A stretch of DNA of 64,000 nt from an uncultured bacterium. Its GTDB lineage: Bacteria; Desulfobacterota_D; UBA1144; Nemesobacterales; UBA2774. The stretch covers positions 1,088,001-1,152,000 of the forward strand of contig CAWGRW010000009.1 of the NCBI GenBank assembly GCA_963825135.1. The letters are read 5' to 3'. Both the position numbers and the translations under genes were made by a program. Shown piece by piece: positions 21,191-61,993 of the stretch. Positions within the stretch are counted from its first letter, which is position 1; every line of letters begins with the position of its first letter. Below the pieces are notes generated by a model, which was not told where the DNA came from, searched no databases, and was given only the letters and a program-made list of their open reading frames with translations.

Positions 21191-21317
21191 ATAAATTGTC
21201 GAAAGAGCTTTAAATCTCAAAAACATCATAACTTTCCAGTTGGCAAAATTCAAGTACGGCAGGCAATGCAAGGTTAATCGCCGGCGGATTCACCGAATTG
21301 GCGCCTCTCGCCATCTT

Positions 21318-46846: not shown

Positions 46847-46875
46847 ATACCGGCCTGCCTCTGATAATGAGGCGG

Positions 46876-47295: not shown

Positions 47296-47350
47296 TGAGA
47301 TTAAATATAATCAGAGCCGGCGTGGATTCCAGTATTGTTTTGTACCGGGC

Positions 47351-47590
47351 TTAAATCAGGTCCTTTAAGGTGAGTCCGTTATCCTTGAGGAATGCGGAAA
47401 TGCCCTTCTTGTTAATCGTCCGGAGCGCGCGCGTCGAAACCCTGATTCTGATATTCCGGTCAAGCTCGGGCACGAAGACGTGCTTCCACTGGAGGTTTGG
47501 GTTCTGGCGGCGTTTCACCTTGTTGTTTGCGTGCGAAACGTTGTTCCCCACGAGCGGGCTTTTTCCGGTTATCATGCATTTCTGAGACAT
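47351..47590 (-). CDS. rpmB: 50S ribosomal protein L28 (non-zinc-ribbon type)
   Basis: C..TGK....GNNVSHANNK.KRR..PNLQ, VSTRALRTI.K; SD GAGGTGA. Confidence 0.96.
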   Translation of the reverse strand: MSQKCMITGKSPLVGNNVSHANNKVKRRQNPNLQWKHVFVPELDRNIRIRVSTRALRTINKKGISAFLKDNGLTLKDLI

Positions 47591-47817
47591 CGCTATCACC
47601 TCGTCTTTTCTTTCAGAAGAACAGTTATTATTCCACAGTAATTAATTTTGTAAACCCGGGCCTGTATCATGCGTCGGTCTTCATGCCCGCCCATCGAATA
47701 TATTATATCAATAATTAGAGGGGATTCCGCGTATAAGTACCATCAATCCCGGATGTAGCGGATTGCCGGTTTTTATTCCGCCAATATGTGACTATTTGCC
47801 GGAAAGCCCGAGACGGC

Positions 47818-48624
47818 TCATTCCCTGACGACGCTGATGTCCCGCTCCGTATTGTTAAACGCGCCGCTTACTGTGTTACCGTCTTTATCCAGAAGCTCGA
47901 GCTTTACGGCGTAATCACCCGTCGTAAGCCCTGTCACATAAGCCGGGGTCCATTCCGTAAGAATGATCGACGTGACCTCTCCCGTCGAATCCTTTTTCCT
48001 GATTGTGTATTTCGCTTTATACCCGTCGGGGCTTAGCTCGACGTTGTATAAATAAAAGTCGAGCAGAATCCTGTCTGAGCCCGCCCCCTCGTACTTACCC
48101 TTGGGCCTGCTGTAGATAATGGCCGGCTTTGATTTGTCGAGCATGAACTCCCCTTCTTTCTTCCCGACATAGAAATTGACAAAATCCGCCGCATCCGGCG
48201 ACTTCACGCTCTCGTGATAGGAGCGGCTAGGAAATACTACGAGCGTATGAGGACCCTCTTTGAGCGTCCCGATCTCAAACGGTTTTCCCGATTGATAATC
48301 CGCCAGATACGGGTCGTTATCCAGTATTATGTGGGCGTGCTGCCCCTGAGCGGAATTCATTATTTCTTTGGCCCTTTCCGTATCGGTCTGGACGCCGAGC
48401 TCGTACTTATCGACGTCGACTACGACCGAGACATCCGGGCTCTTGAGCACTTCTCCGTCCTTGAGTGAAGCGAACCGCGCTTTTGCTCCGGGGAAAGCGG
48501 GAGAGTTCGCGACGGCCTCGATCTTCACTTCATCACCCCCTGCCGCTGTTGCCGCGATTGTCCCTGCCGCCGATCCGATCAGAATTGCCGCAAAAAACAG
48601 TAAAATTATGGAAACCTTGTGCAT
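47818..48624 (-). CDS. Secreted hypothetical protein with two beta-sandwich-like domains
   Basis: Signal peptide; GQHAHIILDN.PY, GPH....F.SRSYHESVK, YSRPKG.Y, LLDFYL.N; SD AAGGAG. Confidence 0.75.
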   Translation of the reverse strand: MHKVSIILLFFAAILIGSAAGTIAATAAGGDEVKIEAVANSPAFPGAKARFASLKDGEVLKSPDVSVVVDVDKYELGVQTDTERAKEIMNSAQGQHAHIILDNDPYLADYQSGKPFEIGTLKEGPHTLVVFPSRSYHESVKSPDAADFVNFYVGKKEGEFMLDKSKPAIIYSRPKGKYEGAGSDRILLDFYLYNVELSPDGYKAKYTIRKKDSTGEVTSIILTEWTPAYVTGLTTGDYAVKLELLDKDGNTVSGAFNNTERDISVVRE

Positions 48625-48729
48625 GTTTCGATGCTCCTTTTGCAATTAATCTCTATATATGTATTCTAATGGTTTAAAGGCTCGATGCCAGTAAAATTTT
48701 ATTTTGACCGATCTGGGCCCGGATAATGC

Positions 48730-48996
48730 ATGATTGACAAGGAATTGCTTGACATAATAGTCTGCCCCGAAACAAAACAGGACCTGGTCCTTGCCGAGCC
48801 CGGACTGGTGGACAGAATAAACCTGCTCATAGATAAGGGAGAAGTGATGAACAGGTCGAAACAGAAGGTGTCCGAAAAAATCGAGGGCGGGCTGATACAA
48901 AAGGAAGACCGTAAATACCTGTATCCGATAAGGGATAACATCCCGATACTGCTAATCGACGAGTCTATACCGCTCGAAGCGCTCAATAATTCTTAA
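48730..48996 (+). CDS. Trm112 family protein
   Basis: ELLDI.VCP..K..L ... YPIRD.IP.LL.DE. Confidence 0.85.
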   Translation: MIDKELLDIIVCPETKQDLVLAEPGLVDRINLLIDKGEVMNRSKQKVSEKIEGGLIQKEDRKYLYPIRDNIPILLIDESIPLEALNNS

Positions 48997-49492
48997 AGAC
49001 CTCCACCTTGTCTGCGGTCATTGAATATAGTCCGCCTACAAGGTTTTCATTGACTACTTCGAACCTGCCCGTGACCCTGAGCGGTATGTCAGTCATGTAT
49101 TTCGTGCTTTTTCCTTCAGGCATTTCCACGTATACAAAATCATTTACCCTAGGCATTATTCCGAAGCAGCACCCCATCTGATTATTAAGGAGCATGAAGC
49201 TTTTGACAACGCCCGAATCGAAATCGATCGGGAGCATGAATCCGGTAATGTTCACTATCTTTCCGTTGAGTTCCTTTACCTTTTCCGGGATCCTCTCGTC
49301 CCTTTCGTAGTCGAACCCTCCCAGGAAATCGAAGTCGACTTTTATTGCCCCGTTTTCAGTTTCAACCGCATTCACAGCGGAATAATCGAAACTCGGCGTG
49401 GGTCTGTAATGTATCCCCAATATAGGCAGGAACAGAATACTGCAGACTACAAGGGCTTTTGTAATCAGCTTGTTCCAGTTTATGCGTTTCAT
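48983..49492 (-). CDS. DUF3299 family protein
   Basis: L.GK.V.I.GFMLP, F.L.....GCCFG..P..N..V.V, V.G.F, LY.M.A. Confidence 0.85.
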   Translation of the reverse strand: MKRINWNKLITKALVVCSILFLPILGIHYRPTPSFDYSAVNAVETENGAIKVDFDFLGGFDYERDERIPEKVKELNGKIVNITGFMLPIDFDSGVVKSFMLLNNQMGCCFGIMPRVNDFVYVEMPEGKSTKYMTDIPLRVTGRFEVVNENLVGGLYSMTADKVEVFKNY

Positions 49493-49539
49493 ATCATTCA
49501 ATTTGTTGCTCCTGATGAGATCGGTTCTCTTCAAAAGAT

Positions 49540-49998
49540 TTACTCGTTTCCCTCTGGAAACCCGAATTTAACATCTTTGAAACTTTGTCCCTTAATATTT
49601 ATAGCTGAAATGACTCCGTCGAAGTTATGTACACCCTTCAATTTGTCCGATTGGGCGGTAAATTCGGAAGTGTCGCCCAGTGTCTCGCCCGTGAGAACGT
49701 TCGGCACAGCCTCTAATTTTAAAATATAGATTATTTTACCCTCTCCTACGCCTTGCGAGTTTACGGTCGTGATTCGAATCTCTATGTCGTCCTGCTCTAT
49801 GCGTACAGGATTTTCAGCTTCCCCGTCGAGAGAATAGCCGGTCAGGGTCCCTGTCCCGGGATCCAGGACAAGCTCCAGGTGCGCGAATTCCTCACCGAAC
49901 TCGACTAAAGTCCCCCCGTGCGGGGCGTGATGTTCGTGTGCGGTTAGAGCCGAAGCCGAGAACAATAGAGCTAAAAATACCGCGATTAACTGTTTCAT
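49540..49998 (-). CDS. Periplasmic His-rich putative metal-binding protein
   Basis: Signal peptide then AHEHHAPHGG.L.E.G...HLELV. Confidence 0.8.
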   Translation of the reverse strand: MKQLIAVFLALLFSASALTAHEHHAPHGGTLVEFGEEFAHLELVLDPGTGTLTGYSLDGEAENPVRIEQDDIEIRITTVNSQGVGEGKIIYILKLEAVPNVLTGETLGDTSEFTAQSDKLKGVHNFDGVISAINIKGQSFKDVKFGFPEGNE

Positions 49999-50043
49999 TC
50001 TTGCTCTCCCTGTAAGATTATTGGCTGGATCCATATTTTCTCC

Positions 50044-51309
50044 TCATGTCGATGGCGCGAGATTAGTCGCAACGTCCGTGGAGTATGCTTTTACGGCGGG
50101 GATTATCCCTGCTCCGGCGCCCAGCAGAACCATGACGACCGGATTTATAATCAGCACCCAGTTAAACTGGAATATGTCGAGCGCAACGCCCGTTTGCTCC
50201 CTGACGATCACTGCAGCCGCGGTTAAAATTGCTCCGTAGACCAGGTACCCAAATAAAGTTCCTATGAGCGCTATCGATGCGGACTCCGCAACTATTGCCG
50301 TAAATACCGTATTTCTCCTTGCTCCGAGCGCCCTGAGAATCGCGAACTCCCGTCTCCTCTCGTTCATAGTGTTGTATATGCTTGCCAGGATGGACCCTGC
50401 CGCTACGACAACGACGAGATACGCGATTAGCGTCAGGATATTGTTCACCCATCCGATTTTTCCGAACAGGTCTGCCATTACCTTTCCGATCGGCCATGCG
50501 AGCGTCGCGACTTTTCCCTGTTTGTTTATCGTCTGATCGAGTAAGAACCCCGCCTGCGGATTTTTCAGCTTGAGCATAACGGCGCTCACTTCCTTGTCTT
50601 TGTCGGGTATTTCCTGCCCCGCGACAGGTGTGTAAATCTCTCCCGCTCCCCTGAGCACGTGTCCCGACATACGGTAGAATTCCTCGATCGGTATCCAGAC
50701 CACCCTGTCGGAAGGTGAGTTCGTAGGTTCCAAGACCCCGACTACTGTGTACTCATCCTCGTGGCGCATCCTTTCGTCGAATACCAGGCCGTGGAAGGGG
50801 TGGAATTTCGAGCCTACCTTCAAGCCGGTCTTATCTGCGACGTAGCTGCCGACGACGGCTTCTTTTTTTTGAGGGTCGAAAAGCCTGCCTCCCGGACTGA
50901 CTTTGAATTTTTTTCCTTTACGGTATTCGAAGTCCGTAAATAATTGTTTATCCGTTCCTACGATCCTCCAGCCCCTGTAATTGTCTCCGACCGCATAGGG
51001 GATAGCGAGCACGACGTTCGGATTTCGTTTGACCGCCTGATACATTTCCCAGGGAATATTCCCGGGAGATGTTTCGAGGTGAAATACCGCGTTCAATACG
51101 AGCTGCAGCTGACTGCCGCGTGCTCCGAGCACGGCGTCGAATCCGACGGGCCCCCCCGTAAACGCATCATAGGTCTGATTTCTTATGCAGAATACGGACA
51201 TGACGAGGCCAGCTGCGAGCGCCACTGAGATAACAGTCACGACCGTCGATAATTTGTGCTGAGCCAGGCTCTTCCTTACTATAAGAAAAATTCCGGTTAA
51301 TTTGTTCAT
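50044..51309 (-). CDS. MacB/FtsX-type ABC permease (ZrgC-like)
   Basis: D.V.GARGS.LQL.LN.VFH, IP...GDNYRG.RIVGT, HG.....H, ERRREFAILRALGA. Confidence 0.88.
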   Translation of the reverse strand: MNKLTGIFLIVRKSLAQHKLSTVVTVISVALAAGLVMSVFCIRNQTYDAFTGGPVGFDAVLGARGSQLQLVLNAVFHLETSPGNIPWEMYQAVKRNPNVVLAIPYAVGDNYRGWRIVGTDKQLFTDFEYRKGKKFKVSPGGRLFDPQKKEAVVGSYVADKTGLKVGSKFHPFHGLVFDERMRHEDEYTVVGVLEPTNSPSDRVVWIPIEEFYRMSGHVLRGAGEIYTPVAGQEIPDKDKEVSAVMLKLKNPQAGFLLDQTINKQGKVATLAWPIGKVMADLFGKIGWVNNILTLIAYLVVVVAAGSILASIYNTMNERRREFAILRALGARRNTVFTAIVAESASIALIGTLFGYLVYGAILTAAAVIVREQTGVALDIFQFNWVLIINPVVMVLLGAGAGIIPAVKAYSTDVATNLAPST

Positions 51310-51328
51310 AGCAGCACCCGCCTACGCC

Positions 51329-52000
51329 TCAATAACTCAGCGTGCGATTTATTTCACTCAATTTCTCCACTCGCTCGAATTTATCGAGCACGTTCTGATC
51401 GTGGCTAACAAGCAGGAGCGCGGCGTCGTTCTCTCCGCATATCCCGCGGATCAGGTTTACAGCTTCGCCCGAATTCCGGAAGTCGAGGTTACCGGTCGGC
51501 TCGTCTGCCAGGACAAGCTTTGGACGGTTTGCCAGCGCTCTCGCTACGGCCATCCGTTGCTGCTGTCCGACCGACAGCTGACCGGGCTTGTAGTCGATTC
51601 TGTCACCGAGGCCCACCCTTTCAAGAAGTGAAAGCGCCAGATCCTTGTCCTCTCCTCTGCCGAACATCATCCCGAGCATTACGTTCTCAAGCGCCGAATA
51701 GCCCTGCAGCAGGTTGAAGGTTTGAAATATATATCCTATGTTTTCCGCCCTGAGTCTGTCTCTTGCCGATTCGGAAAGAGAAAACATATCCTTCCCCGCA
51801 AGGAGTACGCTTCCGCTATCGGGTCTCAGAATACCCGCGATGAGATTCAGGAGGGTCGTTTTTCCGGAACCGCTTTCTCCCCTGAGGGCGATATGTTCCC
51901 CGCTCTCTAGTGAGAGATGAGGTACGTCTATTACCAGAGAGCTTTCTCCTCCGGGGGATATGTAGCTTTTTTTAAGGTCGGCAATTTCCAGTATAGGCAT
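51329..52000 (-). CDS. ABC transporter ATP-binding protein (ZrgB/LolD-like)
   Basis: GESGSGKTT, FQTFNL, LSVGQQQR, ADEPTGNLD, VSHD. Confidence 0.92.
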   Translation of the reverse strand: MPILEIADLKKSYISPGGESSLVIDVPHLSLESGEHIALRGESGSGKTTLLNLIAGILRPDSGSVLLAGKDMFSLSESARDRLRAENIGYIFQTFNLLQGYSALENVMLGMMFGRGEDKDLALSLLERVGLGDRIDYKPGQLSVGQQQRMAVARALANRPKLVLADEPTGNLDFRNSGEAVNLIRGICGENDAALLLVSHDQNVLDKFERVEKLSEINRTLSY

Positions 52001-52010
52001 GTGCGTGTTA

Positions 52011-52544
52011 TTACCTCAGCCAGGGCGGCTTTTCTCCTTCATCTATAGACTCGTTCTTTTCTGTTTTTCCTTCTTTCTGGGCTCCGATAAATAAATTCAT
52101 ATACTTTTCATTAAGCTCTTTTGTAACCGGTTTTGCATATCCCTTTTCTATAAGGAGAACATTCAGCATCTTCCCGCCTGGAACGAATACGTAAGCCGGA
52201 ATGTCTCCCTCTTTTTCCCTCAGCTCCTTATCGGGCTCTACTTTCACGAGCGTCCCTCTTCTCAGTATCGATTCGCAGTATTTCTTCGCTTCCTTTTCAC
52301 TCTCCGCCGGGATGCTGATTCCGGTGAGCCTGATTGTTTCTATGTCCATATCCGGGAGCTGGCAAAAAAAACTGCCGCTTCCTTCGACTCTGACCACGTC
52401 GCAATTAAAGCTTTCGAACTTTAAAAAATCCAGGGTCTCCGCGACTTTTCCGTATTTACTGCACGCGGAGAATATAAGGAACGCTGAAAGCAGCAGCGGC
52501 ATTGCATGCGGGAGACATTTCATAGTCTGCAATAATGCATTCAT
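52011..52544 (-). CDS. Thermonuclease (SNase)-fold lipoprotein, catalytic residues degenerate
   Basis: Lipobox FSAC; IRL.GI..P, AYV, LN..L...GYA scaffold; start 52544 or 52523. Confidence 0.7.
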   Translation of the reverse strand: MNALLQTMKCLPHAMPLLLSAFLIFSACSKYGKVAETLDFLKFESFNCDVVRVEGSGSFFCQLPDMDIETIRLTGISIPAESEKEAKKYCESILRRGTLVKVEPDKELREKEGDIPAYVFVPGGKMLNVLLIEKGYAKPVTKELNEKYMNLFIGAQKEGKTEKNESIDEGEKPPWLR

Positions 52545-52563
52545 TATTTGTCTTATCCTCACT

Positions 52564-53415
52564 CTAAATCCTGATTCTAACCTCACGCCACAAGAGACCC
52601 AGGATGAAAAAGATCGAAGCGCAGACCGCCATGGAAGCCCCTGTCGGAATGGACAGTATGAACGAGAAGAAATAACCGAGCGTCGCCGACAATACGCCCA
52701 TTATTACGGAGAGCGCGAAAACAAGCTTGAGCTTCTCCGTCAGAAATAGTGAAGTGAGAGGCGGGAGGGCAAGGAACGCGAAGACCGGAAGCGCCCCAAG
52801 CGCTCTGGTCGATACGGACGCCACTACAGCTATGGTAATAAGCATAACTGTATTGAGCATTCTGACCGGATACTTGACTAACCGTGCGGATTCTTCGTCG
52901 AAAGAAACGAAGATAAAATCTTTAAAGTAAATGGCATGGATTATCGCTGCTATAATAGCTATAGCGGGAATGATATACAGATCCTTTGGATCAACGACGA
53001 CGGCGCTTCCGAAAAGTATATTCGCTATATCATGAGCGCCTTTGGTTATTCTGTCCCCAAGTATTACGACCGCCCCCGAAGCGATTAAAAACCCGAAACC
53101 TATCACCCCTTCCCGGCTTATGCGCGAATAGTCCCTTTTGAGAGCGAAAAAGAGGGCAGCGAGCGAAGTGAGGGCCATAGACAGAATGAAAGGATGTATC
53201 AAAAATGCCAGCGCTCCCAGGCTGTACCCCTCGAGGTAAAAAGAAAGGGCTACTCCGAAGCTCGAGATTTGGGTGAGCGCGGCGCTTACGAAGATTATTC
53301 TCCTGAGCACGACGTACACGCCAAGGAAGCCGCATATGGCGCCCGAAACCGCCCCTACTATCATCGGGTCACGCCAGAGGAAATAACTGTCTATAAATTC
53401 CTTCAAAATTCCCAT
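52564..53415 (-). CDS. znuB: Zn/Mn ABC transporter permease (ZnuB family)
   Basis: LG.YVVLRR..F, LFGS, SFDE..A, GA...FAFL..P, PTG. Confidence 0.85.
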   Translation of the reverse strand: MGILKEFIDSYFLWRDPMIVGAVSGAICGFLGVYVVLRRIIFVSAALTQISSFGVALSFYLEGYSLGALAFLIHPFILSMALTSLAALFFALKRDYSRISREGVIGFGFLIASGAVVILGDRITKGAHDIANILFGSAVVVDPKDLYIIPAIAIIAAIIHAIYFKDFIFVSFDEESARLVKYPVRMLNTVMLITIAVVASVSTRALGALPVFAFLALPPLTSLFLTEKLKLVFALSVIMGVLSATLGYFFSFILSIPTGASMAVCASIFFILGLLWREVRIRI

Positions 53416-53461
53416 TAATTATTCCTTGTCCCTATACCTGGACTTCTCCCGGATTCGATAT

Positions 53462-54175
53462 CTACAGAATACCTTTGTTCAGCCCGAAGAATTTAGTTAA
53501 ATTAGCTTCGGTCAGGACCTCGCTTCGCCCGCCCGCCTTGAAATATCCGCTGTCTTTGTCGATCAGGATAATTCTGTCGGCATATTTCGTGACCGTATTT
53601 AAGAAGTGGCTTACCATAAGCACGGTCAGTCCGTCCTCGGACCTGATCTTTTGCACGAGCTCCATTATTTGCACCTCTCCCTTTAGATCGACGGACGCGG
53701 TGGGCTCGTCGAGGACGAGTATGTCGGGTTCGCCTGATATGGCGCGGGCGAGGAGAGTACGCTGCTTCTCTCCTCCCGAGAGAGACCTGAATGTGCGGTC
53801 TTTGAGATGAGGTATTCCGACTTTTTCCAGGGACAGCGTTACCACTTCGCGATCTGAGTTCGTAAGCCTTTTTCCCGCGGAGACCCTGCTGTATCTCCCC
53901 ATGGATACGACCTCCTCTGCCGAAACAGGGAATATCGGGTCGAACTTCTCATGCTGGGGCACATATCCGAATACGATTTCTTCTGCCGATTCTATGTTTC
54001 CCGAAACGGGCGGAAGCAGGCCCAGAAGAGTTTTGAGTAGTGTGGATTTCCCGCCCCCGTTCTGACCTAATACGCCCCAGAACTGGCCGCGCTCCACCGC
54101 GAGGTCAAACGGGCCGAGTATCCCTTTATTCTCGTATCCTATAGTCACGTTTTCGAGCCTTATTAATTTCGTCAT
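53462..54175 (-). CDS. znuC: Zn/Mn ABC transporter ATP-binding protein
   Basis: GQNGGGKST, GYVPQ, FPVS..EVV.MG, LSGGEKQR.LLARA, LDEPT..VD. Confidence 0.85.
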   Translation of the reverse strand: MTKLIRLENVTIGYENKGILGPFDLAVERGQFWGVLGQNGGGKSTLLKTLLGLLPPVSGNIESAEEIVFGYVPQHEKFDPIFPVSAEEVVSMGRYSRVSAGKRLTNSDREVVTLSLEKVGIPHLKDRTFRSLSGGEKQRTLLARAISGEPDILVLDEPTASVDLKGEVQIMELVQKIRSEDGLTVLMVSHFLNTVTKYADRIILIDKDSGYFKAGGRSEVLTEANLTKFFGLNKGIL

Positions 54176-54197
54176 CCGCACCTCAATTCTTCGTTAT

Positions 54198-54253
54198 AGA
54201 AAAATGTAGTCCCCCGAGTCTATCGGTAAGGAGGGATAACGGAGGGGACTACA
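54198..54253 (-). terminator. Stem-loop followed by T-run between znuA and znuC
   Basis: 10-bp inverted arms TGTAGTCCCC (54205-54214) / GGGGACTACA (54244-54253); the minus strand continues TTTTT; large loop. Confidence 0.45.
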
Positions 54254-54266
54254 CCAGTACGCGTAT

Positions 54267-55256
54267 CTATCCGCCCGCCTTCGAGGCCGAATGATTCGTC
54301 GATCCCGTTTTATTCTTCAATGCCGAGGTTATGTCGCTCACGATCACATCGAACAGGTCGGTATACGTATTGATCCCGTCCTGTCCCCCTACGCTCGTCG
54401 GTATGGATAGGAACACAGCGCCTGTCTGATCAGCGATGAGCGAGCCCGTTTTTTGAGGATAATAATTTGAAGCAATAACGAGCTTCACGTCCGTCGCTTT
54501 CATTTGTTTGATCAGGTCGGCGACGTGGGATGGCGACGGCGGTATGCCCGGCTTCGGCTCGATATATCCTATCTCTTTAAACCCCACCCACTCCGAAAAA
54601 TAATTGAGGTTTTTGTGATAAGACACTATCTCTGTCCCTTTATAAGGAGCGAGCTCCCCGTCCCATTGCTTTATTTTCGCATTCAGGTTATCGGCAAATT
54701 TTTTGTAATTCTCATCGTAATAAGAGGCGTTTTCAGGGTCTATCTCCTGTAACCTTGCCGTTATCCCGGCGGCAATGGGAATACCGTTCCTCGGGTCGAG
54801 GAGGTAATGCGGATTGCCTTTCGGATGTATGTCTCCCATCGATCTATCGATCTGCGTAGTCGGCACTTCAAGCACCTGTGGGATATAGGCGGATGCGTCG
54901 AGACGTCCGAGGGCATCCGTGGATGTGATCCTGGAGTTCCTGGACCCCGTGATCAGAGGAGGCAGCCAGCCGATCTCGAGATCGAGTCCGTTATAGACGA
55001 GAAGGTCCGCCTTGTTTAGCCTTGTAACGTACGTCGGCTTCGCGTCCACAAAGTGCGGGTCCTGGTAGCCCTTTGCCAGAGTAACCACGTTGACTTTATC
55101 TCCCCCGATTTCCTCCGCGATTGCCCCGAGATCCGGCAGCGATGCGACTATCTGCACTTTCGCCGACGCCTCCCCCGCGGAGAAAAAGATGGATATGAGA
55201 ACAAAAACAGCAAATACCGTGAAGCTTCGAAGAATGTTATAACGTTTCATAATCAT
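54267..55256 (-). CDS. znuA: Zn/Mn ABC transporter substrate-binding protein
   Basis: Signal peptide; DPHF...P, NG.DLE, GD.HP.GNPH..LDP, YH....YF, PG..PSP.H. Confidence 0.88.
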   Translation of the reverse strand: MIMKRYNILRSFTVFAVFVLISIFFSAGEASAKVQIVASLPDLGAIAEEIGGDKVNVVTLAKGYQDPHFVDAKPTYVTRLNKADLLVYNGLDLEIGWLPPLITGSRNSRITSTDALGRLDASAYIPQVLEVPTTQIDRSMGDIHPKGNPHYLLDPRNGIPIAAGITARLQEIDPENASYYDENYKKFADNLNAKIKQWDGELAPYKGTEIVSYHKNLNYFSEWVGFKEIGYIEPKPGIPPSPSHVADLIKQMKATDVKLVIASNYYPQKTGSLIADQTGAVFLSIPTSVGGQDGINTYTDLFDVIVSDITSALKNKTGSTNHSASKAGG

Positions 55257-55276
55257 TTCCTCCTGAAAATATTTGA

Positions 55277-56671
55277 TTAATAAGGATGCGCACCGTGGGC
55301 TCCTATCGCGTATTGGAACTGAAGGAAGACAGCATGCTGGTTACCCGCGTAGTTCTGGTTCAGGTAATCGTATTCCAGCCTGAACTGTGAGAATTCGCTC
55401 GGGCTGAACGTCAGCATGGGCGATACGCGGTATGCCCTCCCCTGCAGCCCCAGTGTCTCTCCCGGGTTGATCGCTCTTGAGCTTACGAGGCCGTCGGAGT
55501 CAGGGATTACGAGCCCTCCTTCTCCTCCCTCCCCGGCGACAGGGGTGTTCGTGTCAGTCAGATCGAACCTGAGGCCGGTATTCCACCTCTTTGCGAACCT
55601 GTAGATACCCTCGGCATAGAAACCGTAATCCTCGAGATTCTCCTCAGGCGTGTCGGCCTGTCTCCACATGAACTCCGACTGGAGTCTGAACTCGGTATAC
55701 GCGCTCTCTCTGAGCGGTCTGTATTTTGCGAACAGGTCGGCTCCGTAGAGGTTCGAGCGTTCCTTGGAGCCCGTTCCGTTGGGACCAGTCGCGAATGAAG
55801 CCCCGAGGTTTACCCCGAGGGAGTCGCTCACTTCGAAGAAATTGGCGAGGTGAAAAACATACAGCAGGTAAGCCAGGTTGTTCGCGTTCGCCTCGTCCGT
55901 GGCGAACGTCGGAGTCTCGACATCGGGGCTGCCCCCGAGGGCGCTAAGCTCCATGAACCAGGGCACGGGGATTAGGAAATCGGCCTCTATGCTCGTCGGG
56001 TTCAGGTGCTCACCCAGGAACTCCGCGGCGACCAGAGGCAGAGTGACGAAGTTCTGCGCGTGCGTATGTATCTGGTTGATCCTTCCGAATTTCGCCCTCA
56101 TGCGCCCCATCCTGAACTGTGCATTGAGGGGCATACTAAAGAGCGACGTGCCGTAAGCCTCCTCGACCTCCACACTATCCTGCTTGAATGAGATGAATGA
56201 GTCGAACCTGAAATACGGATCGACGATGCTCTGGAAACCCAATTCCAGCTCCTGTAAATTGACGCCGGTATTTTGCGGATCGTCCTCGGCAAAAACGAAC
56301 GGGTCGTTCCGGGAGTACCACGCCGCCGCAAAAATGCCTATAACGCTTATATCGGGATTGAGCGTTTGAGCCACTTTGCTTAAAAAGCTCTCCTGCCGGG
56401 GCTGAGGCGCCGCCTGAATGACCTCGGTCTCCTCGGTTGTCATGACATTCTCTTTTTCATTCACTGCCTCTTTCTCTTTCGCCTGCTGCTCGAGCGCCCT
56501 GTTCTTTTCCTCGAGGTCGGCGATTCTTTGCTGCATCTTCTCCATCATCTGTTTAAGCTCTTTTATTTCATTCTTAACATCGCCGCTCTCCTGGCCGAAT
56601 GAGTAGCTCTGGAAACACGGAAACGAAACGGCGACAACGATAAATATCATAATAGTTCTTATGACGTTCAT
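55277..56671 (-). CDS. Outer-membrane beta-barrel with N-terminal coiled coil and GAHGAHPY tail (zinc-associated porin-like family)
   Basis: Signal peptide, coiled coil, NPDIS.IG, E.ELG....VDPY, EEAY, FG..N..H.H, PSEFS..R..Y, C-terminal GAHGAH. Confidence 0.82.
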   Translation of the reverse strand: MNVIRTIMIFIVVAVSFPCFQSYSFGQESGDVKNEIKELKQMMEKMQQRIADLEEKNRALEQQAKEKEAVNEKENVMTTEETEVIQAAPQPRQESFLSKVAQTLNPDISVIGIFAAAWYSRNDPFVFAEDDPQNTGVNLQELELGFQSIVDPYFRFDSFISFKQDSVEVEEAYGTSLFSMPLNAQFRMGRMRAKFGRINQIHTHAQNFVTLPLVAAEFLGEHLNPTSIEADFLIPVPWFMELSALGGSPDVETPTFATDEANANNLAYLLYVFHLANFFEVSDSLGVNLGASFATGPNGTGSKERSNLYGADLFAKYRPLRESAYTEFRLQSEFMWRQADTPEENLEDYGFYAEGIYRFAKRWNTGLRFDLTDTNTPVAGEGGEGGLVIPDSDGLVSSRAINPGETLGLQGRAYRVSPMLTFSPSEFSQFRLEYDYLNQNYAGNQHAVFLQFQYAIGAHGAHPY

Positions 56672-56882
56672 ATCTCACCTCCGAAAATGTAATAGTGGAT
56701 CGAAGCGGATTCGGTATCGCCGTGCCGCGGGAAACGCGCCTGAGTCCGGGGGTGGATGCGGTCCGTTATATATCGGACCGGATGTTTATAGCCCTGACTT
56801 ATAAGTGAGGACTAGATGCCGGATTTACACAAATTAGTATGCTGAGAATGCGCCTCGCGGGCACGGTGTAACGACTATCGGC

Positions 56883-57221
56883 TCAGATCGCCGGAGGGGA
56901 GCGGGAAGGCTTGTTTCGTATTAAAAGCGGATAAGGTGTTGAGTGTTCTGTTTCGTTGAATGAAATGGATCGCCCCGCGTCTATGAGGCTGAACACGGTT
57001 TGCGGATCGGTGAGCTTTATATTCCCGTGCAGGAGACACGCGGAGCACCCTTCGACGGAATGGCCCGCTCCCTGTGCGGCGCCCGAAATCTGTACGAGAG
57101 AGTGGGGGCTAAAGCTTATCCTGTGGCTGTGGATGCTGATCGAAAAAACGAAGAGCACGCCCAGAAGCGGCACTAGAAATTTTGATGCCCTGCTTTTGTA
57201 AACGGCTCTTGACGTATTCAT
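56883..57221 (-). CDS. DUF2946-like (CruR-type) small protein with CxxC and C-terminal RSPP
   Basis: TM helix then HSH, GHSVEGCSACLLH, ends NKPSRSPPAI; ATG overlaps the cbiO stop (TGATG). Confidence 0.75.
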   Translation of the reverse strand: MNTSRAVYKSRASKFLVPLLGVLFVFSISIHSHRISFSPHSLVQISGAAQGAGHSVEGCSACLLHGNIKLTDPQTVFSLIDAGRSISFNETEHSTPYPLLIRNKPSRSPPAI

Positions 57222-58075
57222 CAGGGACCCTTCTTGTCTTTCGATAATACCACTGCGTTCGCTATAGTACAAGCGGCTTCCTCGACTGTGAGGGAGATAT
57301 CCATTTCGACCCCTTGTTTCTTAAGCGCCGAGAATAGCTCTCCCAGTATCGGGGGCTCGATATGACATTTGGTAAGGGCTTCGACCCGGGAGAAAATTTC
57401 CTTGGGCGTCCCCTTACCGACGATATTCCCCCCCTCGGCAATTAGATATACCGTGTCCGCGATCAGAGGGACCGTATTCATATTGTGTGTCGATAGAATT
57501 ATTGCCGTGCCGTTTTCCCTGTTCACCCTGTTCAAGAGCTTGATAAGCTCAGTCCTGCATGCGGGGTCGATGTGCTCGAAGGGCTCGTCCAGTATGAGGA
57601 GCTCCGGCTTGATTACTAGAGCGCCGGCGAGCCCGACCTTGGTTTTTTCACCCCCGCTCAGGTAATGCGGGACTTTATCTTTCAAATGCTCAATTTCAAG
57701 CTTTTTCAGAATATCGTCCACGAGCGCTGCGGTCTCTTCTTCCTTATAGCCGTAATTCCTCGGCGAGAAGGATACGTCGTCCCATACCCTTGGCGCTATT
57801 ATCTGAAGGTCTACGTTCTGGAGCAAAGCCCCAATCCTCTCTCTTATCTTCTCGTACTCTTTAGAAGGGTCGACACCCAGTACCTCTATCTCGCCCCCGG
57901 AGGGCTTGAGCAGCCCCAAGAGCAGGGATAGAAGCGTGGATTTCCCGCTTCCGTTGGGCCCGAGCATGACGACGCGCTCTCCTCTTCCGACGGTAAAGTC
58001 CTTCCCTTCGAAATCGAGAGTCGTCCCGTCCGGGTATTTAAATTTGAGATTTCTGACCTTTACTATTTCTTCCAA
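57221..58075 (-). CDS. cbiO: ECF transporter ATPase (CbiO-like)
   Basis: F.YPDGT, GPNGSGKST, Q..D.Q, V..DV.F.P.N, LSGGEK, LDEP, THN. Confidence 0.9.
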   Translation of the reverse strand: MEEIVKVRNLKFKYPDGTTLDFEGKDFTVGRGERVVMLGPNGSGKSTLLSLLLGLLKPSGGEIEVLGVDPSKEYEKIRERIGALLQNVDLQIIAPRVWDDVSFSPRNYGYKEEETAALVDDILKKLEIEHLKDKVPHYLSGGEKTKVGLAGALVIKPELLILDEPFEHIDPACRTELIKLLNRVNRENGTAIILSTHNMNTVPLIADTVYLIAEGGNIVGKGTPKEIFSRVEALTKCHIEPPILGELFSALKKQGVEMDISLTVEEAACTIANAVVLSKDKKGP

Positions 58076-58887
58076 GCTCTCCCCCGTGCGTTCGGAAGAA
58101 CGGCGTATGCGGCGGAAACGATGAGCGCGGCCAGGGAAAGGGCGAGTACGCAGCCGTCATATGCCGATAGCTCCCCGTCCTTCCTTGCCAAGAGCGCGGC
58201 TCCGAAAATTAAAGCGCCGATGACGAGGGCCGTAAAATCGTTCGCGCCCGATTTTTCGCTCCTCTCTCCGCCCGACAACCTTCCGCTATATCCCCTTACG
58301 TTCAGCACCCCGTAGAACTTTTCCGAGAGGTCGAGCCCCCTCACGAGCATGAGGCCGATTCCGGACGAGAAATTAACGACGTTTTTGATATATCTCCCGC
58401 GCGTTAGCCCGCCCCTTACCCGGAGTCCCTTGACGAGGTTATCGGCAAGCTCTAGGAGTATGAATAGAGACCTGTAAGTCAGGAAGAGCCCCTCCGTGAT
58501 GATTCCCGGCAGGACGGGACCGATCGACGAGAAGACGTCGGGATAAGGTGTAGTGACGATAAGTATGACCATGGCGAGAGCCGCGCAGAGGGCCTTGAGC
58601 ACTATAACCCCCGCGCTCACCCAGCTCCCGTTCCAGCTTGCGGCTGCGAATATGAGAGCGAATATCGCGGGGTATGCGGCGATCGTGACTATCTTCAATA
58701 CGGGGAGCCTCGTCCATATGAGCAGTGATAAAAGCGACACGTAAATCGCGAGCAATATGTAGAAATCGCCTGAGATTACTACGGATGCTATAACGAGCCC
58801 GGCGAATATAATTTTCGAGAGAGCGCGTGCCCCGTGAAGAAAGCTCGCGCCGTGGTTTGCGTAATAATCGATTGCCGAAACGTCCAT
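58063..58887 (-). CDS. cbiQ: ECF transporter T component (CbiQ-like)
   Basis: S.LH....K, TTP, YR..F, two R.RG motifs (RVRG, NVRG). Confidence 0.85.
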   Translation of the reverse strand: MDVSAIDYYANHGASFLHGARALSKIIFAGLVIASVVISGDFYILLAIYVSLLSLLIWTRLPVLKIVTIAAYPAIFALIFAAASWNGSWVSAGVIVLKALCAALAMVILIVTTPYPDVFSSIGPVLPGIITEGLFLTYRSLFILLELADNLVKGLRVRGGLTRGRYIKNVVNFSSGIGLMLVRGLDLSEKFYGVLNVRGYSGRLSGGERSEKSGANDFTALVIGALIFGAALLARKDGELSAYDGCVLALSLAALIVSAAYAVLPNARGRAWKK

Positions 58888-58897
58888 GATAAAACCC

Positions 58898-59608
58898 CTA
58901 CCCCCGCCCCGGCAGAATCAGGTCCGGCCTGACCCGGAATACATATTTGAGGACGAAACCCGTTATTGCCGATTCGAGGATCCATCCCAGGGGGCTCAGT
59001 ATGAAGACCGTCTTCGCGAACCTGGCAAAGTTAATTCCGGCTGCCGGGATTTGGAGCACATTCGTATTGGTGCCGGCTCCGGAAACCAAATGACCGATAC
59101 TCTCGATATTTCCCGGGCTGACGTGAGATATATAAATGACTCCCAGCATCAGAGAAGTGCTTAGAAAAAGGCTCAGGAGCGCGGCGAGAGAGGATTCCCA
59201 GAACATGGATTTATTCCCCATAAGCTCCTTGAACAATTGAAATAAATAATAACCCAGCACGGCTTCCGCCCCTATAATTACGGTATTCAGTCCAACCACG
59301 GTCACGCCTCCGTGCCCGAACATCGATATTATAAGGTCCACTATGAATACCGAAATAAACGCCAGGGCCGGCCCGAGTACGATGCCCGCCAGCACTGTGA
59401 GGTTGACATGGTATCCGATAGGTACGATCTCGAGGGTCATGCCGACTATCATAAGCGCCGAGATAATGCCTATTAACGGTATCTTGCGTTTGAGATCTAC
59501 GCTTCCGACCCTCCGTATGCAGAAGGCCAGTATCAGGGCTGTCGCTATCCAGCCCGCCGTTACGATCCAGACGGGGAGCACCCCGTCTGGTATGTGAATG
59601 TGAGACAT
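58898..59608 (-). CDS. cbiM: ECF transporter S component (CbiM/NikM family)
   Basis: HIPDG.L, H.N...L.G..LGP, GHGG.T..G.N, E..IT. Confidence 0.88.
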   Translation of the reverse strand: MSHIHIPDGVLPVWIVTAGWIATALILAFCIRRVGSVDLKRKIPLIGIISALMIVGMTLEIVPIGYHVNLTVLAGIVLGPALAFISVFIVDLIISMFGHGGVTVVGLNTVIIGAEAVLGYYLFQLFKELMGNKSMFWESSLAALLSLFLSTSLMLGVIYISHVSPGNIESIGHLVSGAGTNTNVLQIPAAGINFARFAKTVFILSPLGWILESAITGFVLKYVFRVRPDLILPGRG

Positions 59609-59624
59609 ATGATTATTCCTTTTC

Positions 59625-60068
59625 TCAGGTCTGGCATTCCCTGCATTTCCCGAAGAGCTGAAGGAAATGGTTTTGAATGACGATGCCCGTATCCTGCGTT
59701 AGTTTCTGAGATAGCTCGTTAAGCGGACAATCCGCGAATTCGATGACCTTGCTGCACTCGGTGCAGACTATCGGGTGCATGTGCCCCTCGGGCGCGACGG
59801 CGTAGCTGTGGCACCCGTCCTCGAGGTGCACCTTCACAATGAGATTTAGCTCTTCCAGCGTTTCGAGCGCCCTGTACACAGTCGCGAGCCCTGTTCCGGG
59901 AAGGAGCTCCTTCACCTTCCTGTCGAGCATGTTTATCGACAGGTAAGACCCGCTGTCCTTGAGCACCTTCAGCACGGCCAGCCTCTGGGGCGTGCATTTG
60001 AGCCTTTTTGCGTGAAAAACGGCCCTGAGTTCTTCCGAATCTTGAGCCCCGCCTGATTTTGCTTTCAT
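59625..60068 (-). CDS. Fur-family transcriptional regulator (probably Zur)
   Basis: TPQR.A.L, GLATVYR.L..L, H.H..CTEC, G.CREC; heads the metal uptake operon. Confidence 0.92.
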   Translation of the reverse strand: MKAKSGGAQDSEELRAVFHAKRLKCTPQRLAVLKVLKDSGSYLSINMLDRKVKELLPGTGLATVYRALETLEELNLIVKVHLEDGCHSYAVAPEGHMHPIVCTECSKVIEFADCPLNELSQKLTQDTGIVIQNHFLQLFGKCRECQT

Positions 60069-60096
60069 TATTATCGCCCTTGACTATATTTTATCG

Positions 60097-60119
60097 CAAT
60101 TGAGAAATATTCTCAATTG
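60097..60119. promoter_or_regulatory. Fur/Zur-type operator palindrome
   Basis: Perfect 10-3-10 inverted repeat CAATTGAGAA-ATA-TTCTCAATTG overlapping the -10 box; its core resembles the 7-1-7 TGA.AATnATT.TCA motif. Confidence 0.8.
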
Positions 60120-60144
60120 TATGCTAGTAAGTATAGACTGTCAA
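60116..60144 (-). promoter_or_regulatory. Sigma70 promoter of the fur-cbiMQO-znu operon
   Basis: TTGACA (60144-60139), 17-nt spacer, TACAAT (60121-60116). Confidence 0.82.
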
Positions 60145-60409
60145 ATTGAGTATTTGGATTCGGCAATGGCTCATTACGCGCCTACTCCGGCAATCAGAAT
60201 TCTAATGGAGCCCCGGACATACATTTTGGGTAGCGCAAAAAAATAAATTAGGATATTAGTGCAACTTATGATATTAGGGTATAATAATCGCATCTACTAA
60301 CGCGAGAAAAAACTTAGTCAATTAATCAACAATTTCAAAAACAGTTCTTGATGCTTGATTGGGTCAAATTCCCAAATAGGAGAAATGTAATAACGGAGAG
60401 GATTACTAT

Positions 60410-61993
60410 ATGAAATCATTTGAAAGTTTTGGTTTGTCGGAAAGGACGCTCGACGTCCTTACCAAAAAGGGCTATGAAATGCCGACCAAGATCCAGGAGC
60501 TGGTTATTCCGGTCGTAATGGAGGGGGACGACGATATAGTCGCCCAGGCCCAGACCGGTACGGGCAAGACTGCGGCGTTCGGAATTCCCCTTATCGAGCT
60601 GCTTCCGGAAAAATCGAGGACGGTGCAGGCGCTGGTCCTCACTCCTACGAGGGAGCTCGCCATACAGGTAGCCGAAGAGATCAATTCACTAAAAGGGTGG
60701 AAGGAGCTCACCATTATTCCTGTTTACGGCGGGCAGTCGATGGGCTTGCAGTTAAGGAGCCTTCGGAAGGGTGTTGACGTCGTCGTGGGCACGCCGGGCA
60801 GGATACTCGACCACCTCCGGAGCGGGACGCTCAAGCTCGATAACATCTCTTACCTCGTTCTCGACGAGGCCGACGAGATGCTCGATATGGGATTCATCGA
60901 TGACGTCCGGGAGATAATGGGATACTCCGGACCCAACAAGCGCACGATGCTTTTTTCGGCGACCATGCCTCACGAGGTCATTCAAATCGCCAAGAAACAT
61001 ATGCGTACATACGAGACGCTCAAGGTCGAGCAGGAACAGCTTACGGTGAGCCAGACGGACCAGATATATTTCGAGGTCGCGGCCTCCGATAAGTTCGAGG
61101 CCCTTTGCAGGATCATAGACGTAGAAGAGGATTTCTACGCTCTCATCTTTTGCAGAACTAAAGTGGACGCCGACAAGGTGGCCGGAAAGCTGATGAAGCG
61201 CGGCTATGATGCGGACGCGCTCCACGGCGATATGTCGCAGAACCAGAGAGAGAGGACGCTTAACAAGTTTAAGAACCGCCAGCTCAATATACTCGTGGCT
61301 ACGGACGTCGCCGCGAGGGGCATAGACGTCCAGAACCTTACCCATGTTATAAACTACGCCCTGCCTCAGGACTCGAAGTCTTACGTACACAGGGTCGGCA
61401 GAACCGGGCGCGCCGGAAAGGAAGGCAACGCGATCACCTTTATCACCCCGGAAGAATATAGAAAGCTTAAATTTATCAGCCGGGAAACGAAAACGGATAT
61501 CAGGAAGGCGAAGCTCCCTCAGGTCAAGGACGTCATAGAGACCAGGAAGAAGCGGGTCAAGGCGGAGATCGAGAATTTATTCAACTCCCGTCCGGGGCCG
61601 GAGTATTACGAGCTGTCGAAGGAACTCGTGGAAAATAAGGACCCTCTGGAAATAATAGCTTCTCTCCTTCAACACACTTTCAGGGAAGAGCTCGACGAGA
61701 AGAATTACACGGAGATAGGAGACGGGGTTGTCGACCTGAAGGGCAAAACCAGGCTCTTCGTAACAAAAGGCAAACAGGACAAGCTCACCCCGAAGAAGCT
61801 GGTGGATTTCATAAGGAACAAATGCAGCATTAAGAGTGAAAAAATTAACGACATCAAAATTCACGATAAATTCTCTTTCGTAACCCTGCCGTTCCATGAA
61901 GCCGAGCAGCTGTTGTCGTATTTCAAAGAAAGGAAAAGGGGCTCGGAGCCTTTTATAATGAAGGCAAAAGAGACGCGGGACCATCACGCCTAA
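60410..61993 (+). CDS. deaD: DEAD-box RNA helicase with C-terminal DbpA-type RNA-binding domain
   Basis: AQTGTGKT, PTRELA, DEAD, SAT, ARGID, HRVGRTGRAG. Confidence 0.93.
   Translation: MKSFESFGLSERTLDVLTKKGYEMPTKIQELVIPVVMEGDDDIVAQAQTGTGKTAAFGIPLIELLPEKSRTVQALVLTPTRELAIQVAEEINSLKGWKELTIIPVYGGQSMGLQLRSLRKGVDVVVGTPGRILDHLRSGTLKLDNISYLVLDEADEMLDMGFIDDVREIMGYSGPNKRTMLFSATMPHEVIQIAKKHMRTYETLKVEQEQLTVSQTDQIYFEVAASDKFEALCRIIDVEEDFYALIFCRTKVDADKVAGKLMKRGYDADALHGDMSQNQRERTLNKFKNRQLNILVATDVAARGIDVQNLTHVINYALPQDSKSYVHRVGRTGRAGKEGNAITFITPEEYRKLKFISRETKTDIRKAKLPQVKDVIETRKKRVKAEIENLFNSRPGPEYYELSKELVENKDPLEIIASLLQHTFREELDEKNYTEIGDGVVDLKGKTRLFVTKGKQDKLTPKKLVDFIRNKCSIKSEKINDIKIHDKFSFVTLPFHEAEQLLSYFKERKRGSEPFIMKAKETRDHHA

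Follow-up and report, generated by a model that had tools for sequence, protein, structure and literature searches.

Several described systems resemble parts of the locus treated here, an array of genes headed by a Fur-family regulator in a 64,000-nucleotide (nt) stretch of DNA (the window; contig CAWGRW010000009.1, positions 1,088,001 to 1,152,000) from an uncultured soil/sediment bacterium of the GTDB phylum Desulfobacterota_D. In the zur-znuABC operon of Geobacter sulfurreducens (zur_Gs-znuABC, PMC545781), as in AztABC, a Fur-family gene shares an operon with a cluster A-I importer whose binding protein has a three-His site, and a palindromic operator lies at the promoter. The Zur-regulated operon PA4063-66 of Pseudomonas aeruginosa and ZrgABCDE of Vibrio encode a separate ATP-binding cassette (ABC) ATPase and FtsX/MacB-type permease, a DUF3299 protein (PA4066, with ZrgE of the same family) and, alongside, a secreted His-rich protein (PMC11481552, PMC9817125, PMC8561739). 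Energy-coupling factor (ECF) transporters of group I, for nickel and cobalt, with CbiM, CbiQ and CbiO components are represented by NikM2 (4m58) and CbiMQO (5x3x). Finally, CruR (Bp2923) of Bordetella pertussis and CutF of Rhodobacter capsulatus are leader peptides with an export signal, a CxxC motif and R-x-P-P two to three residues from the C-terminus, encoded before a long intergenic region and an outer-membrane transporter gene (PMC9426467, PMC9973294). The family of CruR, DUF2946 (PF11162), is defined by these same features, with RAPP three residues from the end (PMC9426467). CruR arrests the ribosome with Pro codons in the P and A sites, and RSPP is reported to be arrest-permissive and strongly avoided in proteomes (PMC12992588); in CutF the downstream ribosome-binding site is shielded by RNA pairing.

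The array in the window brings counterparts of these systems together: a regulator gene in one row with a cluster A-I importer, a palindrome at the promoter, cbiM, cbiQ and cbiO in their usual order, a leader-like small open reading frame (ORF) before a long spacer and an outer-membrane protein gene, and a split MacB-type transporter with a DUF3299 gene. In the reading that we consider rather probable, the array is a composite operon, conserved in its lineage and controlled in two layers, that serves metal starvation and most likely starvation for zinc. Relatives of every module have been described, and their combination as a conserved, doubly controlled metal-uptake operon is well supported. 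The initial annotation of this DNA had noted the gene row, the promoter and the palindrome, which were confirmed, and had interpreted them as one autoregulated metal-scavenging pathway, an interpretation that is partly supported.

The array and its conservation

The source genome amounts to 3.13 Mb in 17 contigs and is 94% complete; the window lies on its contig C9. Families were assigned to all 14 proteins of the array with the curated cut-offs of Pfam and the equivalog cut-offs of NCBIfam. The ORF listing confirmed every one of the 14 co-oriented genes initially proposed, at its position: all lie on the minus strand, where they fill positions 48983-60068 of the window. (Features of the array are on this strand unless stated otherwise.) Eleven proteins score above the Pfam cut-offs, for FUR, CbiM, CbiQ, ABC_tran, ZnuA, ABC_tran, ABC-3, SNase, ABC_tran, FtsX plus MacB_PCD, and DUF3299. 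None of the 14 reaches an NCBIfam equivalog cut-off, and the small ORF and a protein with the mature N-terminus HEHHAPHGG match no Pfam family, even at relaxed thresholds. Most junctions consist of overlaps or gaps of 5-20 nt, longer gaps being found between the small ORF and the barrel gene (211 nt), znuA and znuC (85 nt), and znuC and znuB (46 nt).

Synteny was scanned in one genome per species, giving 36 loci from genomes titled Candidatus Dadabacteria, Thermodesulfobacteriota or similar. The fur gene directly precedes cbiM in all 35 loci with upstream sequence, and cbiQ and cbiO follow cbiM in all 33 informative loci; the gene order proposed from the window alone is thus conserved in related genomes. 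Leader, barrel or znu genes come after cbiO in 26 of 32 informative loci and 15 of 20 have the SNase-like gene, while the module made of the MacB-type pair, the His protein and DUF3299 occurs in 7 of 18, in the closest relatives only. Among the six loci without leader, barrel and znu genes, two continue into Trm112 and four into nuoF-like genes. The array is flanked upstream by a divergent gene for a DbpA-type helicase and downstream by a Trm112-like gene (48730-48996, plus strand), whose convergence on the last array gene sets the end of the array at 48983. Since both flanking genes are retained in most loci, modules have been gained or lost at one chromosomal site.

Four outgroup genomes carry fur-cbiMQO by itself, with promoter and operator retained, and in three outgroups (L051, L053 and L054) leader, barrel, znuA, znuC and znuB, in some cases with the SNase-like gene, form a separate operon elsewhere in the genome. 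The operator was not found upstream of these separate znu operons. With the operator limited to fur-cbiMQO in the outgroups, the ancestral regulon would have consisted of the regulator itself and the ECF transporter; the Dadabacteria core clade would then have placed the znu module behind the regulator, and a sub-clade would have added the MacB module. By sequence comparison the array is a fusion of separable modules with fur-cbiMQO as its invariant core, and the notion of one indivisible pathway had to be given up.

Promoter and putative operator

A sigma-70-type promoter, TTGACA-17-TACAAT (60116-60144), lies ahead of the array. As initially annotated it is near consensus: it matches 11 of 12 positions and is the sole match of this quality in a 14-kb scan (46500-60500). 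Its -35 and -10 hexamers are also retained in the outgroup loci. The last four bases of the -10 hexamer are covered by a perfect palindrome, CAATTGAGAA-TAT-TTCTCAATTG (60097-60119, not assigned to a strand), which is conserved upstream of fur and which we regard as a putative operator. The palindrome is perfect and overlaps the -10 hexamer, as had been described; its geometry is 10-3-10, not 11-1-11, and its core, TGAGAA-N3-TTCTCA, is a 7-1-7-like Fur-family box.

Written as AATTGAGAA-N1-3-TTCTCAATT, the operator forms an inverted repeat without mismatches in 30 of 35 loci; in four its arms carry mismatches, and in one it is masked by N. Its central bases vary, and it persists while the proteins drop to about 50% identity. 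The exact palindrome is present in a single copy in the 3.13-Mb genome, the next-best site having two mismatches, and no second copy was found within the cluster. In five genomes searched with the operator pattern, the highest-scoring match was the fur-cbiMQO promoter every time, all others scoring no higher than a reversed-pattern control. In the first layer of control, the regulator would repress its own gene and the genes downstream.

Arrest codons of a putative leader pair with the Shine-Dalgarno sequence of the barrel gene

The fifth gene of the array is the small ORF (56883-57221), which starts at ATG 57221 in a TGATG overlap with the cbiO stop codon and encodes 112 amino acids (aa) rather than the 129 given initially. 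Its product has a putative export signal, an HxH motif, the sequence HSxExCSAC and, 44 residues further on, RSPP two codons before the stop. Comparison with its orthologues and their loci, 26 in all, showed a basic stretch followed by a hydrophobic N-terminus in every case (by inspection of the sequences, no signal-peptide predictor being used). Of the 26 leaders, 24 have a spacing of 44 residues from CxxC to R[SA]PP, and the other two have 45 and 42. The motif takes the form RSPP in 19 leaders and RAPP in 7, and it stands two residues before the stop in 23. A barrel gene follows the leader in every case.

The designation "DUF2946-like" of the initial annotation was right in substance, given the CxxC motif, the C-terminal R[SA]PP and the fixed spacing (45 residues in Bp2923). 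Pfam does not bear it out: DUF2946 gives no match to the small ORF at E up to 10, nor to 20 orthologues at E up to 1, which speaks against family membership in the strict sense, and for this reason we call the ORF a divergent CruR/CutF relative on the strength of its features. It further departs from CruR and CutF, as described in PMC9426467 and PMC9973294, in its extra invariant His residues, in its mixture of RSPP and RAPP, in its place as fifth gene of a larger operon instead of first (in outgroups L051, L053 and L054 the leader does head its own operon), in the genes that follow it, a porin-like barrel and a zinc-type ZnuACB importer rather than a TonB-dependent copper transporter or a multicopper oxidase, and in having the anti-Shine-Dalgarno sequence inside the arrest codons themselves.

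This last feature became apparent from the RNA. The RSPP codons, CGC UCC CCU CCG (56892-56903), hold the sequence CCCCUCCG, complementary to the Shine-Dalgarno (SD) sequence of the barrel gene, UCGGAGGUGA (56675-56684), and in the predicted fold of the window spacer the Ser-Pro-Pro codons (UCCCCUCCGG) pair with that SD. The spacer itself (56672-56882, 211 nt) is structured (RNA fold z = -3.56) and not conserved in sequence; across loci it ranges from 76 to 218 nt, and only GGAGGTG, the SD, is conserved in it. When about 90 windows of the ORF were compared as partners for the SD, the arrest window formed the best duplex in 17 of 22 loci. The first Pro codon of the motif is CCU in 29 of 33 loci, against 29 of 147 (20%) Pro codons in the other 13 genes. 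In the same 33 loci, the third base of the second Pro codon and the base before GGAGG form A-U in 11, G-C in 8 and G-U in 6, are mispaired in 5 and are not assessable in 3. RNAalifold, applied to 20 loci, returned the helix between arrest codons and SD (10 pairs) as the sole consensus structure. In this register 90.5% of cells are paired, versus 40-54% in slid registers, and none of 500 shuffles was as high; the covariation score was reached by 3 of 500 shuffles. The sequences are related, so these figures overstate their independence.

Altogether, these features make it most likely that the small ORF encodes a regulatory arrest peptide and not a component of the uptake pathway. By analogy with the characterised family, a ribosome would stall on R-S-P-P with Pro codons in the P and A sites, cover the anti-SD sequence and free the SD of the barrel gene. 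Since the Ser-Pro-Pro codons otherwise pair with this SD, stalling would allow the outer-membrane pore to be translated. Metal binding to the His and CxxC motifs of the nascent chain would be expected to alter stalling; for an uptake system, metal should relieve the arrest and close the SD.

We considered whether the small ORF might instead specify a stable metallochaperone, periplasmic or membrane-anchored, that uses HxH and CxxC to act between barrel, ZnuA or the ECF S component. Its His and Cys motifs are indeed conserved (H31 and H33 are invariant, H54 nearly so), it always accompanies the barrel gene, and after signal cleavage its mature N-terminus could read X-H-X-H, as in the S component. 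Such a role would not account for the anti-SD helix, the CCU bias, the 44-residue spacing or the position of the motif two codons from the stop, and conservation between the motifs is poor (mean column identity 46%); we regard this role as quite improbable. Equally hard to favour, and if anything more so, is the idea that leader and barrel respond to copper in a cluster of mixed copper and zinc functions. The characterised DUF2946 leaders, CruR and CutF, do sense copper, via their CxxC motifs (PMC9426467), and this counts against a leader that senses zinc. Here, however, the genes downstream encode a ZnuA-type importer and not copper functions, and the leader adds the three His residues just named. 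Moreover, CutF-like leaders are reported not to be all copper-specific, some preceding nickel/cobalt genes (PMC9973294, section 11).

The pairing also bears on how the array is transcribed. It could be split into several transcription units, with internal promoters, for example in the 211-nt spacer or before znuC and the MacB module, and only fur-cbiMQO under the operator. Such a split would agree with the evolutionary separability of the modules, with the znu module as an operon of its own in outgroups, with the long and variable spacer, with the single operator and with weak promoter-like matches inside the cluster. We nonetheless think it somewhat unlikely. Most junctions are overlaps or short gaps between co-oriented genes and are kept in up to 26 loci, the pairing of leader and SD requires leader and barrel gene on one RNA, and no terminator with a T-tract was found on the minus strand of the spacer. 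The spacer does contain a hairpin without T-tract (56759-56780; a 7-bp stem, CGGTCCG-N8-CGGACCG). Similar, non-homologous hairpins occur in relatives, and it may act in RNA stability or pausing.

The barrel and the ZnuACB importer

The gene that the putative leader would control (55277-56671) encodes a predicted porin-like outer-membrane beta-barrel of 464 aa with a signal peptide and an N-terminal coiled coil. Its Pfam matches to porins are below threshold (BBP2, 16.7 bits vs 26.2; Porin_O_P, 14.7 vs 20.9), and its Atlas neighbours include a Porin_O_P cluster. The AlphaFold2 (AF2) model is beta-rich and matches porins only in Foldseek, at template-modelling (TM) scores of at most 0.56. The low confidence of this model (predicted local distance difference test, pLDDT, 50) tells against a precise assignment, and we take the structural matches solely to suggest a porin-like barrel.

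Next in the row are a ZnuA-type binding protein of cluster A-I (54267-55256; Pfam ZnuA, 174.7 bits), a ZnuC-type ATPase (53462-54181; ABC_tran, 94 bits) and a ZnuB-type ABC-3 permease (52564-53415; 136 bits). NCBIfam scores remain below cut-off, at 97.9 bits vs 350 for AztC and 64.2 vs 268 for ZnuA in the binding protein, and at 180 vs 220 for AztA, the best match, in the ATPase. The binding protein is the only member of the ZnuA family in the genome. In an alignment with the Mn-binding MntC (1xvl/4irm), it keeps two His residues, has a third His where MntC has Glu, and does not conserve the MntC Asp position, a pattern typical of zinc proteins; the three His residues are conserved in 20 orthologues. 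In contrast to zur-znuABC and AztABC, the operator of the window reads TGAGAA-N3-TTCTCA, the regulator matches no curated Zur, and the ECF transporter, leader and porin genes lie between regulator and znu.

A CbiM variant with a displaced N-terminal site

The three genes after fur encode a variant CbiM-type S component of 236 aa with the N-terminus MSHIHIPDG (58898-59608), a CbiQ-type T component (58063-58887; Pfam CbiQ, 65.5 bits) and a CbiO-type ATPase (57221-58075; Pfam ABC_tran, its best NCBIfam models being cobalt/ECF ATPases, below cut-off). The S component scores 120.8 bits with Pfam CbiM (PF01891) and is the genome's only CbiM-family protein; with the CbiM models of NCBIfam it reaches at most 68.3 bits, the cut-off being 205. 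Its AF2 model (pLDDT 74) matches NikM2 and CbiM in Foldseek with TM scores of 0.60-0.71. It also keeps the HIPDG motif and a His at about position 67.

In canonical CbiM/NikM proteins the amino group and His2 of a Met1-His2 that stands directly before I-P-D/E-G serve as metal ligands. In the variant, Met1-His2 of NikM2 aligns to residues 4-5. Because the N-terminus reads M-S-H-x-H-I-P-D-G and not M-H-I-P-D/E-G, the canonical amino group and His2 are displaced by 2-3 residues. Met1 may be removed, since Ser follows, in which case the mature protein would begin S-H-x-H, with an amino-terminal X-His two residues further out and two extra His residues. The FGDGG of NikM2 is replaced by FGHGG, so that Asp gives way to H99. 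H3, H5, H67 and H99 are invariant in 47 variant sequences of 30-46% identity. A putative site of four imidazoles would suit zinc.

That these N-terminal residues are translated follows from the codons. The start ATG is invariant in 36 of 36 sequences, the pattern ATG-TCN-CAY-NNN-CAY holds throughout with synonymous variation only (Ser2 in four codons, His3 in two), and a purine-rich SD stands before codon 1. Codon 4 is not a possible start codon in 23 of the 36. On this codon evidence a start at codon 4, which would have restored MHIPDG, was rejected. In two genomes of the window's genus cbiM is interrupted, by a TAA stop in one and by a split in two in the other (G081:C6:361814-362434; G082:C30:660946-661651); these copies may be pseudogenes or assembly errors.

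No CbiN/NikN/K/L-type gene was found inside the four-gene unit and no extra gene in 33 loci, a profile search for CbiN across the genome not having been made. The gap between fur and cbiM is 16 nt and that between cbiM and cbiQ 10 nt, and cbiQ and cbiO overlap by 13 nt, leaving no room for such a gene between the components. The unit differs in this from NikM2 and CbiMQO, and also in being headed by a Fur-family gene rather than by a B12 riboswitch or NikR.

The variant is widespread. A profile search of 1.84 billion representatives returned 139 clusters at E up to 1e-30, and 92 of the 150 matches listed carry the start M-[STNAG]-H-x-H-[ILVF]-P-D-G at full length; named carriers belong to Nitrospirota, Gastranaerophilales and Bacillota, and one of them, Alkaliphilus serpentinus, is in culture. 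Within the window's GTDB phylum variant cbiM was present in 41 of 120 genomes, among them 31 of the 32 genomes of the window's family and 8 of the 15 of the next. Eighty metagenome loci with variant cbiM were collected, 66 of which have at least 450 nt of upstream sequence. A Fur-family gene lies directly upstream on the same strand in 46 of the 66. The scanned loci among the other 20 (L088, L093, L102, L109, L117 and similar) share a different context, with a Phage_holin_4_2-family membrane protein gene directly upstream of variant cbiM and GAF-PAS and LptC/LptA/LptB-like genes downstream.

Five partner regulators of variant cbiM were compared with solved structures. Three (L098, L137 and L085, of a "C-x3-4-HHHH" type) match Zur structures best, namely 3mwm, Streptomyces Zur, and 2o03, FurB/Zur according to its depositor; the window regulator and that of L079, both of the "DGCH" type, match Fur, Nur, PerR and Zur with little discrimination. 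To judge from these matches, the link of the variant ECF transporter to Zur-like regulators is real in other lineages and would not simply carry over to that of the window.

The SNase-fold lipoprotein and the MacB-type module

The gene after znuB (52011-52586 as the maximal ORF) encodes an SNase-fold lipoprotein with degenerate catalytic residues. The start is probably an internal Met before the lipobox FSAC, the Cys of which is conserved in 13 of 14 aligned sequences, the remaining one lacking its N-terminus. The term SNase-like holds for the fold (PF00565, 28.4 bits, cut-off 21) and not for nuclease residues, which are lost in all but one of the 14. The catalytic and Ca-binding residues comprise DGDT, D-T-P-E of RLxGxDTPE and an Arg before LAY; the window protein has GSGS, GISIPAE and GDIPAY at the nuclease motifs, and DGDT and GR-LAY are kept in L041 only. 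At the very C-terminus of the window protein and its orthologues (52011-52100, minus strand, in the window), a conserved run of acidic residues leads into K-x-P-W-[LIV]-[KR].

The last four genes encode a LolD/MacB-type ABC ATPase (51329-52000; Pfam ABC_tran), a MacB/FtsX-type permease with a periplasmic core domain (50044-51309; FtsX, MacB_PCD), the secreted HEHHAPHGG protein (49540-50034), and a DUF3299 protein homologous to PA4066/ZrgE (48983-49534; Pfam DUF3299, 40 bits; PDB 4hsp, E 4.8e-5). 4hsp is PA4066, described as OB-fold-like (PMC8561739). The HEHHAPHGG protein has a signal peptide and belongs to no known family; in an alignment of seven sequences its relatives have longer His/Asp-rich N-termini, and a PDB sequence search gave His-tag artefacts only. 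Its Atlas matches were unnamed clusters; YtkA and CzcB_N, the named ones closest to it, had scores of 0.80-0.82, which we took as chance.

The designation "Zrg-like module" stands for the split MacB-type pair and the DUF3299 protein. The His protein matches neither PA4063 nor ZrgA (DUF2796) nor any other family, and no homologue of ZrgA/PA4063 or ZrgD (DUF2607) was detected among the cluster proteins (Pfam, and PDB for the His protein). Compared with PA4063-66 and ZrgABCDE as far as described in PMC11481552, PMC9817125 and PMC8561739, the gene order also differs, and the module lies inside a larger operon. An export role has been proposed for PA4064/65 (PMC11481552), which the MacB-type pair resembles. 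The pair may, by this analogy, export rather than import, so three import architectures are not established.

The regulator and the likely metal

The first gene (59625-60068) encodes a Fur-family regulator of 147 aa, of a "DGCH...GHxHP" type, that scores 96.3 bits with Pfam FUR (PF01475; cut-off 23.1); with it, the genome has four Fur paralogs. Its conserved candidate ligands in the orthologue alignment, VHLEDGCHSY..GHxHP..C..C...CP...H, appear to fit no characterised site. The initial description of a Fur/Zur-headed array is accurate in that the regulator gene comes first, behind a conserved operator; by sequence similarity the regulator cannot be assigned to Zur.

Of the other paralogs, a canonical Fur with an HHHH motif is encoded at C9:2434540-2435042 of the source genome (G000), behind a Fur-box-like site, ATTGATAACTAATATCAAT. 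Two more such sites, about 650 bp apart, lie near 1.87 Mb (C9:1869545 and C9:1870193), and further Fur-family paralogs are found at C9:309510 and C9:2629134. In outgroup L054, where leader-barrel-znuACB is a separate operon, an extra Fur-family gene (11884-12285, minus strand) converges on znuB. Its product shares 30% identity with the window regulator, and it has no orthologue in the window genome or the other loci.

Zinc is the best-supported metal, likely though unproven, as the initial annotation had held. To judge from the proteins encoded, the best fit comes from the His-His-His site of ZnuA, as opposed to His-His-Glu in MntC, and from the PA4066 homologue. The genome (94% complete) points the same way: its one ZnuA-family gene and its one CbiM-family gene both lie in the array, and no ZIP, no CbiC and no NiFe hydrogenase were found. 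Several results weigh against a firm assignment. NCBIfam Zur gives the regulator 43.3 bits vs a cut-off of 167, with all equivalogs far below their cut-offs. Among solved structures it comes closest to Fur proteins (9ire, 8e-22), and Zur structures rank tenth or lower (2o03, 3.5e-13; 4mtd, 3e-7). The Fur-family tree of cbiM-linked regulators, poorly resolved and with long branches, does not join the "DGCH" type with the Zur-like "CHHHH" partners. Also, because the outgroup regulator controls only cbiMQO, its metal could be the ECF substrate and not zinc. Finally, the CbiM/NikM relatives of known function carry cobalt or nickel.

There is a different account, which this last point would also suit, in which the regulator is a nickel- or cobalt-responsive, Nur-like sensor, CbiMQO is an ordinary nickel/cobalt importer, and the znu and MacB modules were appended later, cobalt or nickel uptake being zinc-sparing or serving an unrelated need. 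The similarity of the S-component model to NikM2 and CbiM would agree with it, as would the good match of the regulator to Nur (3eyy, 2.5e-15) and the self-contained fur-cbiMQO of the outgroups, where alone the operator is found. Cobalt can, besides, replace zinc under zinc starvation in P. aeruginosa (PMC11481552). We hold this account to be unlikely in view of both the variant itself and its surroundings. Two invariant His positions and the N-terminal register set the variant apart from NikM2, its unit lacks a CbiN/NikN/K/L-type gene, and three distant partner regulators are Zur-like. Neither NikR, urease, hydrogenase or B12-riboswitch nor any other nickel, cobalt or B12 context was seen in 14 distant loci scanned. 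In the window genome, besides the lack of CbiC and NiFe hydrogenase, the only cobalamin riboswitch (window 21015-21200) precedes genes for a BtuB-like receptor, BtuF-like proteins and an ABC importer. In the absence of CbiC, and with the sole cobalamin riboswitch before a BtuB-like import locus, a dedicated cobalt supply for corrin synthesis is unlikely. The riboswitch locus (13774-21200, minus strand) comprises a TonB-dependent receptor (19050-20939), a 499-aa protein without family, two Peripla_BP_2 proteins, an ABC ATPase and a FecCD permease; it resembles a locus for B12 import in which the binding protein is duplicated.

Returning to zinc, a more specific proposal, which we put forward tentatively, is that CbiM variants of the form M-[STA]-H-x-H-[ILV]-P-D-G, with their four invariant His residues and no N component, are zinc ECF S components, spread over several phyla and typically under Zur-type repressors, and that here the variant has been fused with a zinc-sensing leader whose arrest codons are the anti-SD of a dedicated zinc porin gene.

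Neighbouring genes

Beyond the Trm112-like gene lie a secreted 275-aa protein without family (window 47818-48645), ribosomal protein L28 (47351-47599) and a DUF1232 protein (46876-47295), all on the minus strand. This order after Trm112 is common to many relatives and is outside the cluster. An Rfam search of region 46500-60500, at E up to 1, gave one chance match to a long non-coding RNA and nothing else.

Discussion

In the proposed pathway, metal would cross the outer membrane via the porin-like barrel and enter the cell via the three-His ZnuA and ZnuBC or, in parallel, via the variant CbiMQO transporter, the S component of which begins with XHXH and contains four invariant His residues. 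The closest relatives would add the MacB-type ABC transporter, the N-terminal-His protein and DUF3299, as in the Zur-regulated PA4064-66/ZrgBCE. Neither this array nor a CbiM-type ECF transporter linked to zinc was found described in a literature search; the supplements of PMC9973294 (File S1, Fig. S6), which could list ZnuA-linked leaders, were outside its scope.

None of the three points that follow was met in the papers found. The locus ties a CbiM-type ECF transporter with a non-canonical binding-site signature to Fur/Zur-type regulators and zinc importers, and not to B12 or nickel enzymes. If the variant carries zinc, this would be a new metal for ECF transporters, and many "cobalt/nickel permease" annotations would be wrong; because the cultured Alkaliphilus serpentinus carries the variant, the question is accessible at the bench. 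A CruR/CutF-type arrest peptide in the context of zinc uptake, with arrest codons that double as anti-SD, would provide a compact link between stalling and translation of a pore. A co-regulated, dedicated porin is a candidate answer to how zinc may pass the outer membrane without a TonB-dependent receptor.

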